Below are positions 12,389-23,688 of a stretch of 23,688 nucleotides of DNA, in pieces. The DNA comes from a virus. Lineage: Duplodnaviria > Heunggongvirae > Uroviricota > Caudoviricetes. The stretch lies in the IMG/VR virus record IMGVR_UViG_2690316345_000009, one strand, 5' to 3'. The translations under genes were made by a program, and so were the position numbers. The first letter of the stretch is position 1. Each line of letters starts with the position of its first letter. Under the pieces are notes generated by a model, which did not search any database, was not told the origin of the DNA, and saw only the letters and a program-made list of their open reading frames with translations.

Positions 12389-13363
12389 TTAAATCAAGTC
12401 TAATGTACTCTGTTTCCCTGGCCATTTTAGCTCTAACAAATACTCCCGGGACTCATTTATGATCATAATCACATCATCATAATCCCGTTTTGTTTTTAGC
12501 GCTCTAGCCATGTTGCTCTTAACTAAATCAACTGTTCCCTCACAATTAAGATTAAGCGGATTATTAGGTAGGTGAGGTACAACCGCAAACACTGGTCTTT
12601 TCGCCTTATTTGCAAACTCAGCTTGAGTTATCGTTCCGCTATTTAACGCAGCCTCGATTAAAATTGAACCTGCAGATAATCCAACTTGTATCCGATTTCT
12701 TTGTACAAATGATTGTTTCTGGGCCGGCCGACCCATAGGATACTCAGAAATCCATGCACCACCTTTATCCAGAATCTCTTGAGCAAGTCGACTGTTTTGC
12801 TTCGGCTTAGCCTCCTCAAGACCATGCGCCAAGACAGCAATGGTTTTTCCTTTTGCCTGTAACGTTGCCTTGTGGGCATTCGCATCAGTGCCTATTGCTA
12901 ACCCACTTACAACAATATACCCAGCAGACACTATCTGATTAGTGATCCGCCTCGTTATTTCTTCCCCTGCAGGGGAGGTATCACGGGATCCTACAATTGC
13001 GACACCCGGCAATTCTTTGAGTATACTTTTATCCCCTTTTATGTAGAGAATTGATGGTGGATTAGGAGTAAAAGCTAAACTAAGAGGATAGAATTCAGAC
13101 CCATATGGTATTAGCTCCACACCATTAACATGGTGGTTCTCCAATTCAGCGTTCGCTATTAGAAAATCAGTCTCAGATATTTTATCTTTTAGAAACCCGT
13201 GGCTATTAACCATCTCAGTTAAGTCGCGTATATCACGAATAACATCAAAATCGATAAGCTCAAAGAATTTTAATACACTTTGATCAGATGCTAGCTTCCC
13301 GATTTGAATAGCTAATCCAAGTGTATTTTTTAATTCTTCTGAGTGCACTTTGCTACTCCTCAT
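12389..13363 (-). CDS. DprA/Smf-like (Rossmann, SLOG-type) domain protein; candidate ShosA-like component
   Basis: 324-aa ORF with DprA-family core motifs GVAIVGSRDTSPAGEE...GYIVVSGLAIGTDANAHKATL...IAVLAHGL; overlaps the upstream PRTase gene by ~11 nt on the same strand; AT-rich relative to the phage core. Confidence 0.6.
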   Translation of the reverse strand: MRSSKVHSEELKNTLGLAIQIGKLASDQSVLKFFELIDFDVIRDIRDLTEMVNSHGFLKDKISETDFLIANAELENHHVNGVELIPYGSEFYPLSLAFTPNPPSILYIKGDKSILKELPGVAIVGSRDTSPAGEEITRRITNQIVSAGYIVVSGLAIGTDANAHKATLQAKGKTIAVLAHGLEEAKPKQNSRLAQEILDKGGAWISEYPMGRPAQKQSFVQRNRIQVGLSAGSILIEAALNSGTITQAEFANKAKRPVFAVVPHLPNNPLNLNCEGTVDLVKSNMARALKTKRDYDDVIMIINESREYLLELKWPGKQSTLDLI

Positions 13364-13928
13364 AGTTTGCAGTTTCTAGCAGAGCTAATGGCATTATAAC
13401 TCCAGCTCCTGCAGACTCCAGTAAATAAAAACACGCAGACAAACTACCGCCTGTTGTTTTAACATCATCTAGTAGTAACACATTTCGCCCCATGAGGTTA
13501 CCACCCCTAACTCTGATACTAGACATGTGACCAGTAATTGAGCGATCTCCTCCTTCACGATGTGCGCTAGGAACAGTGCGTGTTCTTTCCAAACAGCAAT
13601 CAACAATGCCCCGACGGTGAACATTTACGATTCGCTCGGCGACCTCAATCAAAGCCGGTGAAATTCTGCCTTCAGTGTGAGACGGGACAACTGCTATCGA
13701 AAAAGGAGACTCAACAAAACGCCCACCGCCACCTCTGATTACTAACCGCCCAACCTTATCTATAGCTAATCGAGAAAAACGGTTAATGGCCCTTTGATGA
13801 TTACGATTATTTTCATCCTTAAAATCCATCATCTGCCTTGATAGTTCATCGCTATGAGGGTTGCGCTCTCCCAAATGCCAGTAGGGGTGATACAAGCCAC
13901 ACGATGTAATACTTACGGGTAAAAGCAT
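13353..13928 (-). CDS. Phosphoribosyltransferase (PRTase) domain protein; candidate ShosT-like component
   Basis: 191-aa ORF containing the type I PRTase PRPP-binding signature VLLLDDVKTTGGSL; first gene of a two-gene cassette with the DprA-like gene; sits between cos and the portal gene. Confidence 0.6.
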   Translation of the reverse strand: MLLPVSITSCGLYHPYWHLGERNPHSDELSRQMMDFKDENNRNHQRAINRFSRLAIDKVGRLVIRGGGGRFVESPFSIAVVPSHTEGRISPALIEVAERIVNVHRRGIVDCCLERTRTVPSAHREGGDRSITGHMSSIRVRGGNLMGRNVLLLDDVKTTGGSLSACFYLLESAGAGVIMPLALLETANYEE

Positions 13929-14422: not shown

Positions 14423-15169
14423 CTAGCGAATTGACGGTAACGTCAGGCTCAAAGATTCATCATGAAGTTCCTGCATATAATCTGACCATAATCCTTGCAT
14501 CTGCATGGTTTCTTTCAGATAAGAATATTCGACTGAACGATGAAGCATTGTTGCTGATACTGCAGAAAAGGGAGATGTTTTCTGACACTCACCTAATATT
14601 GCCTCGACTAGATTCATAAGAATGTTTTTACGTCTAGTACTTGGATTCTCATTAAACCAATTAAGTTTTTCTATTGCGTCATCAATACTGCTATCTATAA
14701 GTTCCCCTGCTTTACAACGCGGTATAAACTTGTGCTCCCTGTGATTAAAGTTTAAAACATCCACTGTTGTTTTACCTAAATCAGTTTTACCTTTAATACG
14801 ATACCCTATCATATAAAGGTGTTCTGACGGTAAATCGTTGCATGGATTTATTATAGGATTGAGTACAACATTATGGCGTTGTTTTGAACCATTACAGTGA
14901 CGGCATGAAGGAAGGAGATTTTCCCATCTAATAACATCATCAGGGAAATTTTTTTTATCCTTAAAATGCTCAATTTCATTATAGGTGCTAGCCTCTTCAA
15001 GCTTGACCTCACAAAATGCACATTTGCCATTACTTAATTTTAGACATGCCGATTTTACTTCCGGATGATGCCAAACAGATGTTCCATTATCTTTAAACTC
15101 CTGAGTTAAAGATAGAAGATCAACACGAGTAAAAAAATCAGGAATAAAGTTCCGTTCAAGCTTAATCAT
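14423..15169 (-). CDS. HNH endonuclease-domain protein; candidate Septu PtuB-like nuclease
   Basis: 248-aa ORF with HNH-type arrangement CAFCEVKL...EIEHFKDKK...WENLLPSCRHCNGSK; start 1 nt after the stop of the upstream ATPase gene; strongly AT-rich. Confidence 0.7.
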   Translation of the reverse strand: MIKLERNFIPDFFTRVDLLSLTQEFKDNGTSVWHHPEVKSACLKLSNGKCAFCEVKLEEASTYNEIEHFKDKKNFPDDVIRWENLLPSCRHCNGSKQRHNVVLNPIINPCNDLPSEHLYMIGYRIKGKTDLGKTTVDVLNFNHREHKFIPRCKAGELIDSSIDDAIEKLNWFNENPSTRRKNILMNLVEAILGECQKTSPFSAVSATMLHRSVEYSYLKETMQMQGLWSDYMQELHDESLSLTLPSIR

Positions 15170-15170
15170 T

Positions 15171-16352
15171 TTACTCTTCTCTCTCTCGAATTGACATCAG
15201 GCTTATTTTAAGAGATTTACGAAGAATACTGTTTTGATGCAATGCCATATCCAAATAATCATAAATTTCTTTCGCCTTGTCGAAATTTTCTTCATCAACA
15301 AAACGTTCGAAATTATCAAGTAGTTCTTGTAGTTTTCTACTGAGAGTGCTTTCCATCCCCATTACATCTAACAAAACCTCTTCAACTGTCCAGGCAGAAT
15401 AACCCAAGCCATTTTCAGGAAGTTCTTTTACTCTCACTGTGCCATCATTATCTGGTACTAACGCAATGATCTGATGTGGTTTTGCATTCTGTACTACATG
15501 TGGGCTGTGAGTTGTGACAATAAATTGTGCTGATGGAAATGTTGTCGTAAGGGCTTCAGTGATTCTTGCCTGCCACTCAGGATGCAAATGAAGCTCAATT
15601 TCATCGATAAGAATCACTCCATCAAATTCTTGGGCGTAAATATCTTTCTCCGGATAACGAAGCTCGATCTCTTTAATAATACCGAGAAGGAGACTCATAC
15701 ATGATTTGAATCCCGAGGACAGATATTCATACCATATTACCCCGGTCGGGGTATTTACAAAAATATCGTAAGATTTAGGATCGACGCGATTGTAAGAAAA
15801 CTGAGGGTTTAAAATTGATATACACTCCCTTGCAAGATGTATATTTTTTATCGTATTAGGACCGTAACCATTATCTACTTTTTCAAACAAATCCCTCTTA
15901 GCAAACCAATCCTTGATATCATGTAAATTGACACCTAAATTAATCTGTTGCGAAACAGCATCATCGGATAGTGATTTATCTGCATTCAACGCCTCAAGAT
16001 GTTTATAATCAAAGTTACGTAATATTTCAAATTTTATTAGTTTCCTCTTATCAAATCCGTTATTATTAAAGTTGTGAATTGTTTCTGTAGGCAAATGAAC
16101 GTTAACATCTAATACTGAATTAAAGTTAACAGAATTATCTTCTATTATTAGACTAACACTTCCTGTTTCAGAAGTGACATTGCGTTTTATTCTATTAGTG
16201 TATCCATGAAGAAAAGGAAAGGAGGCAGCAAGCAAGAGTGTGGATTTTCCAACTCCGTTAGGCCCACATATAATATTCATGTCAGGCCTAAATTTTACGT
16301 ACAGGGACTTTATCCCCCCGATACCGTTTATAGTTAGCTCAGTCAGTTTCAT
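15171..16352 (-). CDS. ABC-type (AAA_15/21-like) ATPase; candidate Septu PtuA-like component
   Basis: Track ORF 15171..16373 starts at a GTG; likely start is the in-frame ATG with upstream AAGGAAA giving MKLTELTINGIGG.... Walker A GPNGVGKST, ABC-signature-like LSSGFK, Walker B VILIDEIELHLHP, H-loop TTHSP. No TOPRIM or other nuclease domain fused. Confidence 0.7.
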   Translation of the reverse strand: MKLTELTINGIGGIKSLYVKFRPDMNIICGPNGVGKSTLLLAASFPFLHGYTNRIKRNVTSETGSVSLIIEDNSVNFNSVLDVNVHLPTETIHNFNNNGFDKRKLIKFEILRNFDYKHLEALNADKSLSDDAVSQQINLGVNLHDIKDWFAKRDLFEKVDNGYGPNTIKNIHLARECISILNPQFSYNRVDPKSYDIFVNTPTGVIWYEYLSSGFKSCMSLLLGIIKEIELRYPEKDIYAQEFDGVILIDEIELHLHPEWQARITEALTTTFPSAQFIVTTHSPHVVQNAKPHQIIALVPDNDGTVRVKELPENGLGYSAWTVEEVLLDVMGMESTLSRKLQELLDNFERFVDEENFDKAKEIYDYLDMALHQNSILRKSLKISLMSIREREE

Positions 16353-16587
16353 ATATTTCCTTGTAATTTCCACTAACCCACATTCAGGATTAGCTAGATA
16401 CTAAGGAACAAGCCAAGTGTTGTAAATAAAAAATCTTATCTTATATTCGAGTTAGAAAAGTATGTTGCACCCGCTGGTTGAGCAAACAGTACAAAGCTGG
16501 CGGCCATTGAAGATCATGACCGCCATACCTAACGCCTCGCTTCACTCGTTGTTCAACCTTGTTCCCTCTGATAGGATCCTATCGGGA

Positions 16588-16809
16588 TCAACGTTTTAAT
16601 GTAACCTGCTGCATTATTTCCATTACTCGCTTTTTGTCTTCATCCAGTTTTAACCCGCTCAGTTCAACACCATTGGCGCTGCCCTTACGGATACGAATTG
16701 CTGTTTTGGGATACAGAGGGCGCAAATTACGGTAGAGCTCGGATTCAAGGGCTTCCAGTGTGGCCTGGCTAATCTTCTGCTCTTTATCGATCATTATTTC
16801 AATGCGCAT
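16588..16809 (-). CDS. dinI: DinI-family protein
   Basis: 73-aa ORF MRIEIMIDKEQKISQATLEALESELYRNLRPLYPKTAIRIRKGSANGVELSGLKLDEDKKRVMEIMQQ, matching the E. coli DinI pattern; downstream of a LexA-box-like operator. Confidence 0.75.
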   Translation of the reverse strand: MRIEIMIDKEQKISQATLEALESELYRNLRPLYPKTAIRIRKGSANGVELSGLKLDEDKKRVMEIMQQVTLKR

Positions 16810-16821
16810 ACAGATTTCCCT

Positions 16822-17010
16822 TTAACTGGTAACGTCCATTGATCGGCTGTATTCATGGCTGCGAATTTTCGCCATCAACTCATCTGTCAGTTCGGACACC
16901 CACTGGATAGCCAGCCGCTTTTCTTCGTCGCTGCACTCACTAGCCGCTACAAGCTTGATAAAAAAATCAATACGCTGGAGCTTCAATGACTCCAAAAGAT
17001 AGTCCTGCAT
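16822..17010 (-). CDS. Small hypothetical protein, first gene of the putative SOS-regulated operon (possible Tum-like antirepressor)
   Basis: Within track ORF 16822..17187 the ATG preceded by AGGAGGGAAG gives a 62-aa product MQDYLLESLKLQRIDFFIKLVAASECSDEEKRLAIQWVSELTDELMAKIRSHEYSRSMDVTS. The Tum analogy is positional only. Confidence 0.4.
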   Translation of the reverse strand: MQDYLLESLKLQRIDFFIKLVAASECSDEEKRLAIQWVSELTDELMAKIRSHEYSRSMDVTS

Positions 17011-17056
17011 CTTCCCTCCTATCATTACACGGATACACAAATACTGTACATATACC

Positions 17057-17076
17057 CACTGTTTATACAAACAGTA
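17057..17076. promoter_or_regulatory. LexA (SOS) box-like operator
   Basis: CACTGTTTATACAAACAGTA contains a perfect CTGT-N8-ACAG palindrome, ~40-50 nt upstream of the small ORF start. A degenerate second box (ACTGTACATATACCCAC) lies just beside it. Coordinates approximate. Confidence 0.6.
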
Positions 17077-17168
17077 TAGTAGGAAAGAAAAAATGTAAAA
17101 CTCTTTTTTGTCAGTCAATTGGATGTACTGACTCCAGTCAATAAAGCACGAAATGTTAAACAGCATCC

Positions 17169-19562
17169 TTAGTACCATCGACGCCATTTGTCATCTTCCT
17201 GCAGCCTCTGTTTACGGTAAAAAATACGTAAACCGGCACCGGATGGAATGCTGCCGCCACGCAGAAGCAAATCAATCTCAGATACACTACCCTCAAACCC
17301 TCTGGCAGTCAGTTCTGCCTCAAGCTGCAGGCGCTGCTGCTCCGAAATACTCTGTATGTATGCTTTTTTTCGCTTCGGTTTTACCAGTCTCAACCTGGCT
17401 GTCAGCTCCCGCCGTTCCTTCTGGCCCATGTTGTGGAGATATTCCTGCAGCTCCTTCTCATCCATGGTTTTAATATCGGGTAAATCCCCCCCTGATTTGT
17501 TCATATTTTCAACAGGGGGACAGTTATTGCCACGAGTCCAAGGGGCGCAAGCGCCCTGGTCGGCTACCGCCTCCTGAACGTCAACGGCTTTACGAACCAT
17601 TTTCCACTTCACTGCATGAGTGCAGATCTTGCCCTCTGCAATGGGTGACCAGATGCCATAAATACGAATGCCGTGATCGCCATAGGCGGTCGGCTCTTCG
17701 TTAATTTCATAAGCAGTTCTGATGAGGTGATATTTGCGGGGAACCAGTACGCCGCCCTGCTTCATGATGTAAGTGGCAAAACAACCAGCATCAGCAGCAG
17801 CCAGGATTGCATCAAGGCGCGGGTTATCCAGTACCGGCGCACCTGCTTTTTTGTCCCCCTGTTGCCTTGCCGCCTGACCAGCCAGCAATCGCAGTTCACG
17901 GTAAGCCTGACGCCCCGGAATGCCAAAGAAGCGGAATTGCTGAACACGATGCAGAGACGCCCAGGCATTAACGTATTCAGCGTTATCACGCAGGGATTTA
18001 CCCGTTTCCTTACTGATCTCGCCAGCCAGACCACGCCCGTCAATATTCTTACTGATATATTTCGCAATGTAGCTTGTCGGCGTTCCTTTGCGCGGGTTTA
18101 TCAGCTCAGACTTAAAGCGTGGCCCCGTGTTATTGCCCAGCTCCTCGCGGTCTTCACGGATGGCAAACTTACGCAACAATGCAGTAATGGCGCGGCGGTC
18201 TTTTTTGCGCATGAAACACAACAGGTGCCAGTGAACTGTGCCGTCATGATGCGGCTCAGCCACCCGCACGCCATACCAGCGCAACCCGGCTTTGTGCATA
18301 GCCTTACGAAATGCAGCAAACATGCCGACCAGATAATCGCTGCTTTGTCTTACTGTCGCGTTGGTCCAGGTCGGGTTTGGCCTGCCGTTATTTAGCGTGG
18401 AATGGAAACGTGACGGACAGGTGATGGTGTAGAAAACGGCGCAGTCACCGCGCATTTCCGCGATAAGCTCCAGACCTTTAACACAGGCCATCATCTCATT
18501 GCGGCGATGCGCAGGGTTGCTGCTGCTGGCGTTTACCACGTCTTCCATATCCAGCGTGTCGCCGTCTTCGTTCACCAGTTCATGAGAACGGAAAAACTCC
18601 AGCGACTTACGGCGCTGCTCACGTTTATGCATCACGGCTTCATAGCTGACATAGGGAGATGCTTTTTTGCTGACCAGGCAAACAGCACGCAACTGCTCTT
18701 CCCGCCATTCGCTACGCATCTTCCATAATTTCCGATACCACCAGTCGGCGCACAACATACGCGCCAGCGAACCCGGAATAAGTTCATAGGGCACGGGTTT
18801 ACGGCGGTTTCTTTTCCGGCGGAGTTGCTCAAACGCAGGCGGTATGACATCCAGTCGCAGGGTTTCCGCCGCCACCTTTTCCCATGTCTTGCGGATTTCT
18901 TCTGGCTTAACGTCATCGGTGGCATACAAATCACCACAAGCGACCTCAAGACACATGCTCATATGCGCTGCTACCAGGGTGGACAGGCGTTTTACCTGAT
19001 CCTGACTCATTTCAGGCAGGATCAGCAGGCCGTCCAGCCCTTCATGGCTTGCCATAAAGCGAAAAGAAGTGGATAGCTGACTGTCGCGTACATGCTCCAG
19101 TCTTTCCAGACATGGCTTAATCGTCTCACGCAAATAGCGGGAATAAGCCTTTGGCCTGCCCAGACTGCTGAAGTATTCAATACGTTGCATCAGCGGCTTG
19201 CTGATATGGGAAGGCAGGGCGTTGACGTCAGCCAGAATGACCATGTCTGGATTAAAACGCTGCTGCTCATGCGCCAGCTTTGCCCGGCTAATGAGCTTAT
19301 CCTGCTCCATTTCGCGCTGGACAGGATCACGGGATTCATTAAAGAAATAACGCTCCCAGACCTGCTCACTCAGTGCCTCGCGGCGCAGTTGTTCCTGCTC
19401 GTTATCGGCAGCATACAGAGTGATCAGGTTTGAAAGTGCAGACTCCGGCGCAAATTCCGCCGGGTCCAGATAAGGGTTAATGGCCTTTTTCGGGCCGTTC
19501 CATGAAAATGATGCAGCGGCCTCGTTAAAGCCGCTAGAGTTGCTCATATCGTCATGACTCAT
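17169..19562 (-). CDS. Replication initiation endonuclease (P2 gpA-like rolling-circle initiator)
   Basis: 797-aa ORF; size and position (between the Dam/TraR operon and the SOS module) match P2/186 gene A; start overlaps the dam stop (ATGA). Confidence 0.85.
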
Positions 19563-20416
19563 ACACGCACCTCGTACACAGCAGAACTATCTACGCCACG
19601 CGAAGGATCAAATCCCACCCAGCAGCGCGCCCCGGAAACAGCAATGATTTCTGTTGCAGATTTACTATCACCAGCTGCCACACCGATGCTGCGTTTTGCC
19701 TTGATGTAGTGGTGAGTAAAATTGCGATACAGCGAACGGATCAGGGATGTGTCACTGTTAGAAACAATGACCGGATGTCCTTCTGATGACCGATGTTCAA
19801 GAACGGATGCCAGGTGATACTGGTCATCTTCAGTGAAACCATCAGTGTGATAGCCGGAAAACGTACCGTCATACGGCGGATCGCAATACACCACATCCCC
19901 CGCCTTCAACATCGCCAGCGTTTCATCAAAGCTGGCGCAGATAAACGTTGCCCGCTGGGCTTTCTCTGCAAATGCGCGAATTTCTTTTTCAGGGAAATAC
20001 GGATTTTTATAATTACCGTAGGGAATGTTGAAATACCCGCTCTTGTTATAGCGACATAACCCACGGTAACCATGACGATTGAGATACAGAAAATATACCG
20101 CTTTCATGAAATCAGTAATTTCAGTGGAGTAATTAAACTCCTGCCTTATGTTGTAATAAGCCACCTCCCTGTTTGCTTCCTCAAATAAAGCTCTGGCACG
20201 AGATATAAACGCCTCACAATCAGCAGCAACCTTTTTATAGAGGTTGATTAAATCAGGATTAATATCCGCAACAAGATAGCTGGGGTAATCCGTCTCCATC
20301 ATCACTGCACAGGAACCCGCGAAAGGTTCAACCAGTCGCGGGCCAGCAGGAAGATGCTTTTTCAGTTCGGACATTATGGCGGTTTTATTTCCCGCCCATT
20401 TCAGGATGGTGCTCAT
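19559..20416 (-). CDS. dam: DNA adenine methyltransferase (Dam-like, N6-adenine, probably GATC-specific)
   Basis: Track ORF 19559..20476; likely start is internal [23 protein letters not shown].... Contains the catalytic DPPY motif ([11 protein letters not shown]) and an N-terminal AdoMet-binding region (EPFAGSCAV). No adjacent restriction endonuclease gene. Confidence 0.85.
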
Positions 20417-20640
20417 ACAGCACCTCCGTTGTAATGTTTGCCTTTCAGCTCTGCGATTTCCTGACAGGTAATGCAAAGCTGCACACCCGGAATGGCACGA
20501 CGGCGTGCTGGCGGAATTGGCGCTTCACACTCAACGCAAAGCACGCGGGACACGCCCGGCGTTTTGGCACGGGCAGCACGGATATGACGTTGGCGTTCTT
20601 CTTCAACGCGCTGCTGGACGAGATCCATTGCATCAGCCAT
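20413..20640 (-). CDS. TraR/DksA-family C4 zinc-finger protein
   Basis: 75-aa ORF with CVECEAPIPPARRRAIPGVQLCITCQ, the characteristic Cys4 finger of TraR/DksA-like phage proteins; translationally coupled to neighbours on both sides. Confidence 0.7.
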   Translation of the reverse strand: MADAMDLVQQRVEEERQRHIRAARAKTPGVSRVLCVECEAPIPPARRRAIPGVQLCITCQEIAELKGKHYNGGAV

Positions 20641-22626: not shown

Positions 22627-23196
22627 GTGGATTTCAATAGCGGCGGTAAGAAAGCCATAGAACGTTTAGTTGAAGCATATGGGTTCGGTACCCGTCAGGC
22701 TCTCTGTGATCATTTAGGTGTTTCTAAGAGCACCATGGCAACGCGCTATATGCGTGATATTTTTCCAGCAGATTGGGTAATCCAGTGCGCCCTTGAAACG
22801 GGCACCTCGCTTAATTGGCTAACAACAGGGCATGGTTCAAAGCAAGCATCAGCAAATACAAATACTATAGAAGTAGAAAAATATTTATTGTCTGATGGAG
22901 CATTGCAGAAAGACGGTTTTTATATTTTTGATAAGGAATTTCTACCCTCTACGTTTAAAAAACCTTTTGTCATCACAGATAACAATTCTGAATTTATTTG
23001 TGATAAAGAATTTGATGATATACGTGATGGTAAATGGGTAATAAGTATTGATGGCGAAATAACGATCCGTGACATTACTCGTTTACCCGGTGGAAGAATC
23101 TTCGTCGAGGGTGGAAACAGAGCCTTCGAATGCAAGATAGAAGACATTGAAATAATTGGTAAAATTATAAGTTTAACAGTCAAGTATGTTAAATAG
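22627..23196 (+). CDS. cI: CI-like immunity repressor (186 CI family)
   Basis: Track ORF 22540..23196; likely start is the in-frame GTG preceded by GGAGG, giving ~189 aa (186 CI is of similar size). N-terminal HTH-like region (TRQALCDHLGVSKSTMATRYMRD). Call rests mainly on switch synteny. Confidence 0.65.
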   Translation: MDFNSGGKKAIERLVEAYGFGTRQALCDHLGVSKSTMATRYMRDIFPADWVIQCALETGTSLNWLTTGHGSKQASANTNTIEVEKYLLSDGALQKDGFYIFDKEFLPSTFKKPFVITDNNSEFICDKEFDDIRDGKWVISIDGEITIRDITRLPGGRIFVEGGNRAFECKIEDIEIIGKIISLTVKYVK

Positions 23197-23211: not shown

Positions 23212-23403
23212 ATGCTTGGTAAGGTATTTTTTGTGGTTTTGTCATGTTCTTTGTTATTAAACCCACTAACTACCTATGCTAGAAATTATCCCTGCTCAGG
23301 GAAAAAGGGAGGTGTTTCTCACTGTACCTCAGATGGCAAATTCGTTTGCAATGATGGAACTATTAGTAAATCCAAAAAAATCTGTACTAAAAACTCACGA
23401 TAA
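23212..23403 (+). CDS. Small secreted cysteine-rich protein (candidate lysogenic-conversion moron)
   Basis: 63-aa ORF with strong RBS (GGGAGGAAACT-ATG) 16 nt after the CI stop; N-terminal signal peptide ([23 protein letters not shown]) and a ~40-aa Lys-rich part with four Cys (C-x9-C-x7-C-x11-C); AT-rich. Confidence 0.5.
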
Positions 23404-23586
23404 CTTTTGCTTTTATATCTGCGTCTAAAATAAAAATGAGCCGCAGGTTAACCGCAAAAGTTACATGCTCACATAGCAAAAAGAATAGCCAACTTCATTA
23501 TGGCTTCAGTGAGATGTATGGTCGTAGGATTTCATACATTGACACTGGTTATACATACAGTAAAAATGCTCTCTACTGGAGGTAAT

Positions 23587-23619
23587 GCCAGTCAGTTAAG
23601 CAACTGACTGGCTCTTTTT
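23587..23619 (+). terminator. Rho-independent terminator (11-bp stem, 4-nt loop, T-run)
   Basis: GCCAGTCAGTT-AAGC-AACTGACTGGC followed by TCTTTTT on the plus strand, downstream of the CI / small-ORF transcription unit. Coordinates approximate. Confidence 0.55.
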
Positions 23620-23688
23620 CGGGGCTGTGGGGTATTTCCAGGGCCTCTCCTTTACCACTCTCGGGAAGGCCCTTTCCCTTCTTGTCGG

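Follow-up and report, generated by a model that had tools for sequence, protein, structure and literature searches.

The p95 SOS operon of phage 186 and its Tum protein were reportedly described by Brumby in 1996 and by Shearwin in 1998. Tum is an antirepressor that is controlled by LexA and blocks the DNA binding of CI (PMC3121763). In Fels-2 and PSP3, the tum gene is split by a stop codon (Lemire 2011, PMC3121763), and the antirepressor activity of PSP3 was assigned to the upstream gene in a personal communication cited in PMC3121763. Induction of SopEPhi in gut inflammation has been attributed to SOS-enhanced expression of Tum (Diard 2017, as reported in PMC9827884). The gpA-gpQ interval is a defence hotspot in P2-like phages (Rousset 2022, PMC9122126). 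A different type of SOS control is found upstream of colicin and cloacin genes, where the double operator is bound by two LexA dimers and basal expression is very low (PMC2994835).

The window analysed here, a stretch of 23,688 nt, comes from a P2/186-family prophage of E. coli, and its nearest relatives are SopEPhi, SEN8, and Fels-2 (genus Felsduovirus). The initial annotation had recognised an SOS-type module where phage 186 has its tum operon. This placement agrees with the 186 annotation: the module comes immediately after replication gene A, in the same orientation, and the layout matches that of 186, PsP3, and Fels-2 (Table 1). The two ORFs that follow the module, which had been read as Septu-like, were identified by PADLOC as Septu, with the PtuA ATPase preceding the PtuB HNH nuclease on the minus strand. 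The portal gene lies on the opposite strand from gene A, the tum module, and the defence cargo, and from this gene order the module was placed in the gpA-gpQ hotspot, on the side next to gene A. Apl-like, CII, and Fil genes are also encoded in the window, and the gene identical to the window CI is labelled 'phage repressor protein CI' in RefSeq. The tumA-tumB region was matched in approximately 1180 of the 5426 complete E. coli genomes.

Table 1. Positions of the tum module and of neighbouring features in the window
Feature	Position	Strand	Remarks
186-type CI repressor, presumed TumA target	22627-23196	plus	33% identity to 186 CI, E 2e-38
Dam-type methylase	19559-20476	minus	
Replication gene A (gpA)	17169-19562	minus	Pfam Phage_GPA 3e-127
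Predicted -35 hexamer TTTACA of the tum promoter (186 p95 counterpart)	17094-17099	minus	17 nt upstream of TACTGT
Predicted -10 region	17071-17078	minus	TACTGT 17076-17071 (17-nt spacer) or TATACT 17078-17073 (15-nt spacer)
Putative LexA box 1, TACTGTTTGTATAAACAGTG	17057-17076	minus	HI 4.6; present in 35/35 loci
Putative LexA box 2, CAGTGGGTATATGTACAGTA	17042-17061	minus	HI 9.6; overlaps box 1
RBS AGGAGG of tumA	17015-17020	minus	Conserved among related loci
tumA-like gene, 62 aa	16822-17010	minus	Homologue of the N-terminal (antirepressor) half of 186 Tum and of PsP3 TumA
tumB-like gene, 73 aa, DinI family	16588-16809	minus	Pfam DinI 1.3e-17
Stable hairpin with weak U-tail, GCUUUGUACU, candidate partial terminator	16498-16525	minus	-19.3 kcal/mol, z -4.1
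Promoter-like TTTACA-17-TAGTAT before ptuA	16426-16398	minus	
Septu ptuA	15171-16352	minus	PADLOC PDLC00305, PtuA 1.2e-151
Septu ptuB	14423-15169	minus	PADLOC PDLC00342, PtuB 1.6e-95
ShosTA system	12389-13928	minus	

The module is, with high probability, the split-form SOS operon tumA-tumB of a 186/Fels-2-type temperate phage. This assignment is based on the sequence, namely on the anatomy of the module, its homology to both halves of Tum, the presence of CI, and the conservation of promoter and operator. LexA binding, antirepressor activity, and the domain of CI that would be targeted are predicted by analogy with the work on 186, PSP3, and Fels-2. A module of this kind has already been described; it is real and well conserved, and the TumA copy is identical to a published phage gene.

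The mechanical ORF list also contained a 121-aa version of the small ORF, starting from an upstream ATG at 17187. The 62-aa form is supported by the position of the RBS and by homologues that start at MQD; the AGGAGG sequence reported in the initial annotation was located at 17020-17015, 4 nt before the ATG. The 62-aa ORF, hereafter TumA, had been described as not recognisably Tum-like. This description was accurate for pairwise BLASTP, in which no alignment was obtained between the ORF and either 186 Tum or PsP3 TumA. The control comparison of PsP3 TumA with 186 Tum, which are annotated as similar, produced no alignment either, and pairwise BLASTP is therefore uninformative at such length. 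At the profile level the description failed. The ORF was assigned to phrog_698 (1.5e-36) with cross-matches to phrog_8554 (2e-8) and phrog_1993 (2e-3); reciprocally, residues 1-69 of 186 Tum matched phrog_1993 (2e-23), phrog_8554 (3e-12), and phrog_698 (6e-6), and PsP3 TumA is a member of phrog_1993 (3e-32). Direct alignment by hhalign of the ORF family, represented by 21 diverse members from an exhaustive search, with the family of the 186 Tum N-terminal half gave a probability of 95.8% (E 7.8e-9), and the match was collinear (2-44 versus 2-44), so that the homology of TumA and Tum is one of profiles over 43 columns. Hydrophobic heptads, a Cys at position 26, and a helix of the form LAI..W.SEL / IAL..IAEI are common to the ORF family and the Tum N-terminal half.

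The exhaustive search yielded 58 clusters at 50% identity; in every one the protein was small and separate, with no DinI part fused to it. TumA of the window was 100% identical to an ORF of phage SEN8, 98% identical to its SopEPhi counterpart, and 87% identical to STM2728 of Fels-2. The AF2 model (pLDDT 85) predicted a two-helix hairpin with helices at residues 2-23 and 28-61 and with Cys26 in the turn. No family for the 62-aa protein was found in Pfam, NCBIfam, or PADLOC, and no related protein was found among solved structures. The suggestion of the initial annotation that the protein might be a different antirepressor or serve another SOS function is thus unsupported, as the profiles place it with the N-terminal half of Tum and the split form has been described for Fels-2 and PSP3 (PMC3121763).

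The ATG of the second gene, tumB (16809), follows the TAA stop of tumA after 12 nt, the same spacing as first noted, and its assignment to the DinI family was borne out by Pfam PF06183 (64.3 bits against a cut-off of 24.2; E 1.3e-17). TumB shared 36% identity with residues 71-139 of 186 Tum (E 1e-18), matched the PHROG of full-length Tum (151 positions) at positions 71-140, and aligned to E. coli DinI (1GHH, residues 1-70); its score was below the NCBIfam DinI equivalog cut-off (41 versus 111 bits). Since the small ORF is a homologue of the N-terminal half of Tum and the DinI-like ORF corresponds to the C-terminal half, the two genes represent the halves of Tum encoded separately.

Related loci were gathered with the single 62-aa protein as the query, and 33 of the 34 fetched genomic loci (from Citrobacter, Enterobacter, Pantoea, Erwinia, Tatumella, and others), together with the window and Fels-2, made up the 35 loci compared below. 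Among 33 related loci, tumB was missing in approximately 13 and decayed in two, whereas tumA, the query of the search, was always present, which fits TumA as the essential effector. The window copy of tumB carries a 20-nt deletion relative to all relatives. The resulting frameshift ends the protein with VTLKR at residue 73, whereas TumB of the relatives ends with VWEDDSWLH at residue 77; the last eight residues are thus lost, and the complete end of the DinI C-terminal helix (WE.DD.W) is not present.

This truncated allele was found in only 4 of the 5426 complete E. coli genomes. In addition, an IS4 end lies between the RBS and the start codon of int at approximately 23583. The truncation of tumB and the position of IS4 point to decay of the prophage, so that the switch may no longer yield phage. 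It is accordingly conceivable, although somewhat unlikely, that the operon has stayed intact as an SOS-induced unit within a defective prophage, where it would drive the expression of lytic genes without proper excision, leading to cell killing, or persist as a neutral relic. Against this reading, no damage is seen in tumA, its RBS, the promoter, or either LexA box, all of which agree with the consensus of the relatives, and TumB is dispensable in many of these. Moreover, the window ends inside IS4, and int lies beyond view.

Downstream of tumB, backbone homology with the relatives ends at approximately 16523-16529. A cargo junction inside tumB at 16604, where megablast homology ends, was considered and rejected, because this end reflects the 20-nt deletion and homology resumes as far as approximately 16523. 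In the relatives, tumB is followed by a variable hairpin and then by 34 conserved nt that supply the RBS and ATG start of a third gene, which takes the place that orf97 has in 186. The hairpin of the window (16525-16498) is comparable to the 186 terminator t95a, which folds at -21.7 kcal/mol versus -19.3 kcal/mol, and both have weak tails. The start of ptuA was set to the ATG at 16352, which is probably correct since, in the ORF as listed from the GTG at 16373, the PADLOC match starts at residue 8. No Rfam matches were detected in 16300-17300.

With this arrangement, read-through from the tum promoter into Septu is possible, as judged from the sequence. A further reading would make it the main purpose of the promoter, which would then serve mainly for SOS-inducible expression of the defence cargo (Septu, ShosTA), in the manner of 186 orf97, with prophage induction as a secondary effect. 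Transcription from 186 p95 passes the partial terminator t95a into orf97, which blocks 186 infection according to its annotation, and the third gene of the relatives begins within the 34 nt past the tumB hairpin. The first cargo ORF was co-oriented with tumA in approximately 22 of 33 loci, and the weak U-tail of the window hairpin points in the same direction. Even so, this reading is improbable: the hairpin stands upstream of ptuA, a separate promoter-like site before ptuA is conserved in the Leclercia copy, and plasmid-borne defence systems of this hotspot worked with their native promoters (PMC9122126). Two papers on the gpA-gpQ hotspot, one of them PMC9122126, make no mention of tum, LexA, or SOS.

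The presumed target of TumA is the 186-type CI repressor, and the CI sequences of related phages were compared with that of the window. In six phages with TumA 87-100% identical to that of the window, the whole CI was only 38-58% identical to the window CI. The identity was concentrated in the N-terminal part, with 69-82% over the first approximately 65 aligned residues and 22-41% over the remainder. In 186, which has a distant Tum, the N-terminal part of CI was 40% identical to that of the window. These seven comparisons are suggestive of a TumA type that tracks the N-terminal domain of CI. Since Tum blocks the DNA binding of CI, such covariation fits an antirepressor that touches the DNA-binding domain.

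The disparity between near-identical TumA proteins and divergent whole CI proteins could also be taken to mean that the 62-aa protein is SOS-induced with a function other than the inactivation of CI, perhaps acting on some conserved factor of the host or the phage, and resembles the Tum N-terminal half without sharing its activity. In the literature searched, no direct biochemical evidence was found for any split TumA. This interpretation is nevertheless very unlikely, given that the profiles align collinearly with the non-DinI part of Tum, that the CI N-terminal domain is conserved in step with TumA type, and that the genetics of Fels-2 tie the loss of LexA to prophage induction. The 62-aa gene very probably decides the induction of these defence-hotspot-carrying prophages.

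The perfect CTGT-N8-ACAG palindrome of the initial annotation was confirmed upstream of tumA, with the core CTGTTTATACAAACAG at 17059-17074; the distance to the tumA ATG at 17010 is 48 nt, compared with the approximately 45 nt first given. The core forms part of a 20-mer on the minus strand (17076-17057; box 1 in Table 1). The TTTACA -35 hexamer, with an A-tract upstream, is kept in nearly all 35 related loci, and box 1 lies at a fixed distance from both. In 186, p95 is annotated as TTCACA-18-TACTGT with the LexA site beginning at TACTGT. TACTGT was chosen as the -10 hexamer of the window from this annotation and from conservation; either candidate hexamer, TACTGT or TATACT, overlaps the left half of box 1. 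No promoter was called at this position by a generic sigma-70 scan, which is explained by the agreement of TACTGT with TATAAT at only three positions.

The boxes were scored by a heterology index (HI) with a symmetrised matrix, since the unsymmetrised matrix reproduced published values poorly. The matrix was built from 19 E. coli LexA sites, and its absolute values are approximate. Control sites scored 4.5 for recA (published, 4.31), 2.2 for umuDC (2.77), and 6.3/7.1 for lexA (6.39/8.31; published values from PMC2994835). With the same matrix, box 1 scored 4.6 and was thus close to the recA box. Its position was occupied in all 35 loci (HI 1.1-9.1), with the CTGT and ACAG halves fixed and the centre variable. 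Just upstream of int, a promoter of near-consensus sequence (23539-23567) also contains a LexA box as strong. The window has another CTGT-N8-ACAG palindrome at 16701-16716, but this copy falls within the DinI coding sequence, its centre is rich in G+C, and Fels-2 does not keep it. It is probably a chance match and was discounted as an operator.

That the LexA-box-like palindrome upstream of tumA is itself a chance occurrence, with the genes expressed constitutively or by read-through from gene A, is extremely improbable, for although the bare 8-base pattern was expected 0.36 times per window and observed twice, as in 2 of 100 shuffles, and the generic scan called no promoter, the full 20-mer fits the consensus as well as the recA box does, an HI of 5 or lower was reached in none of 100 window shuffles, and all 35 loci hold the site with fixed half-sites, a variable centre, and a fixed distance to the conserved -35 hexamer.

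Box 2 shares five bases with box 1 (17057-17061), and the two boxes start 15 nt apart. Its HI of 9.6 is similar to that of the proximal colicin/cloacin box (9.3, same matrix). The left half is poor, with GTGG instead of CTGT, and a site of equal quality was found in 12 of 100 shuffles. The significance of box 2 lies in its register and conservation: a second box in the +15 register was present in 24 of the 35 related loci. Over 35 nt, the double operator was identical at 30 positions to a cloacin-type operator, TACTGTATATAAAACCAGTGGTTATATGTACAGTA, which recurs without a mismatch in at least 257 Col-type plasmids; in pCKO3 it lies 42 nt upstream of a colicin-like bacteriocin operon. By its layout, the overlapping pair of boxes appears to be a double SOS operator of the colicin type. 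A double operator is also found in Fels-2, whereas 186 and PsP3 have a single LexA box. We infer that tumA would be controlled more tightly in this phage lineage, and would respond later, than tum in 186.

The module would be expected to act as follows. In the lysogen, LexA would occupy the operator, which covers the -10 region and the transcript start; as a colicin-like overlapping pair, the operator should accommodate two LexA dimers and silence the operon firmly until most of the LexA is gone. After DNA damage, active RecA would lead to the self-cleavage of LexA, and the operon would be transcribed. TumA would then bind the 186-type CI, probably at the N-terminal DNA-binding domain, and the lytic promoter would be released, allowing lytic development of the prophage. 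TumB is predicted to act on RecA filaments and to modulate the SOS signal, an accessory role for a protein that is truncated in the window copy.

A wider proposal, which we regard as rather doubtful, is that Fels-2-type prophages may put three things under LexA. The double operator of tumA would set a high damage threshold for induction; the LexA-box promoter of int would tie excision to the SOS response in cases where int and cI are separated; and partial read-through into the gpA-gpQ hotspot would render cargo such as Septu partly SOS-inducible, as is the case for 186 orf97.

In summary, the split tumA-tumB operon confirms textbook biology, in which 186-type phages tie induction to the SOS response through an antirepressor controlled by LexA. 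Two minor points that can be tested refine this picture: the double operator, and the suggested covariation of TumA type with the N-terminal domain of CI. The practical value lies in an annotation gap, since RefSeq lists tumA as a "hypothetical protein" and PHROGs give it as "unknown function".

Compared with known systems, the module shares several features with E. coli DinI, the Gifsy operons, and the colicin operators. E. coli DinI (1GHH) has a C-terminal helix end of the form W-E-D-D-x-W, which the window TumB lacks. The gfoA/gftA systems of the Gifsy phages (Lemire 2011, PMC3121763) likewise consist of a LexA-controlled operon with a DinI homologue and a small antirepressor, which acts on a non-cleavable repressor; however, the order is reversed, with dinI first, and the antirepressor and repressor families are unrelated to those of the window. 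The double SOS operator of colicin and cloacin genes comprises overlapping LexA boxes in the same register as in the window, but it controls a bacteriocin, whereas the window operator would control a prophage antirepressor and the occupancy of box 2 is predicted.

The operon of 186 (NC_001317) resembles that of the window in its location after gene A, in a LexA box that overlaps a TACTGT -10 hexamer, in an N-terminal antirepressor part followed by a DinI-like part, in the 186-type CI as target, and in a hairpin with a further gene downstream. The two differ in that 186 Tum is one protein of 146 aa, from which internal starts also give the DinI part alone, whereas the window has two genes; in that 186 has one LexA box and the window module two overlapping boxes; and in that Septu stands in the place of the third gene, orf97. 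TumA of the window is only approximately 19% identical to the N-terminal half of 186 Tum.

The same split layout of two genes as in the window is found in PsP3 (tumA/tumB) and Fels-2 (STM2728/STM2726.1). In PsP3, tumA is annotated as "similar to 5' end 186 tum; UV induction of prophage" and is followed by tumB, and the DinI gene of Fels-2 is annotated as similar to PsP3 TumB. PsP3 TumA belongs to another subfamily (phrog_1993, against phrog_698 for the window) and is preceded by a single perfect LexA box. The eight C-terminal residues missing from the window TumB are present in PsP3, Fels-2, SEN8, and SopEPhi.

The promoter ahead of the integrase gene int is near consensus, and its spacer contains a LexA-type box that equals the box of the tum module (the LexA-box-controlled tumA-tumB genes) in strength, with an approximate heterology index (HI) of 4.5. 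In relatives free of IS4, the int start codon is located approximately 25 nt downstream of the end of this promoter. In the window, int was severed from its LexA-box promoter by the IS4 insertion, and the last base of the window falls within the element. This 49-nt cassette was 96% conserved in Klebsiella phage 4LV2017, which belongs to a different genus. The strong LexA-type box in the int promoter, the conservation of the cassette in 4LV2017, and the arrangement of int and the repressor gene cI together suggest that integrase expression may be under SOS control.

Sequence features of the window and of the related Leclercia locus L036 (HI, heterology index; lower values are closer to the LexA consensus; matrix of 19 E. 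coli LexA sites, values approximate)
Feature	Position	Strand	Remarks
ShosTA toxin-antitoxin defence pair	12389-13928	-	Adjoins Septu, same hotspot
24-aa ORF MAVMIFNGRQLCTVCSTSGCNILF	16448-16522	-	Starts at conserved RBS and ATG
Weak LexA-like site TACTGTTTGCTCAACCAGCG	16472-16491	-	HI ~10.6 symmetrised, 9.3 on one strand
63-aa ORF	23212-23403	+	Signal-peptide-like N-terminus; between cI and int promoter
Promoter	23539-23567	+	TTGACA, 16-17 nt spacer, TAAAAT or AAAAAT
LexA-type box CACTGGTTATACATACAGTA	23543-23562	+	HI 4.5
IS4 end (TAATGCCAGTCAG...)	23583-23688		Between int RBS (ctggagg) and int ATG
L. adecarboxylata tumB-Septu region	L036 3199-3727		tumB with in-frame stop

Between tumB and the Septu gene ptuA, the weak LexA-like site lies just past the hairpin, approximately 46 nt upstream of the promoter-like -35 of ptuA; chance sites as good as this one (HI ~10.6) are not rare. 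The site is identical in the Leclercia copy, which says little because the entire region is approximately 85-90% identical. The 24-aa ORF spans the hairpin and shares the conserved RBS and ATG that open the third gene of the operon in relatives; it is probably a remnant left by cargo replacement.

The Leclercia locus carries the same Septu cargo joined to the same backbone. Its tumB is interrupted by the in-frame stop and is thus decaying, an independent sign that TumB is dispensable. Beside Septu, the ShosTA pair consists of a ShosT-like phosphoribosyltransferase (match 3.7e-14) and the DprA-like protein ShosA (2.8e-70), and an AIPR-family gene takes its place in the otherwise identical prophage of E. 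coli GPEC389.

The 63-aa ORF, labelled a YdcA family protein in RefSeq, appears to be a moron insertion. In 4LV2017, too, cI and int have other genes between them; in Fels-2 and SEN8, int is immediately downstream of cI.
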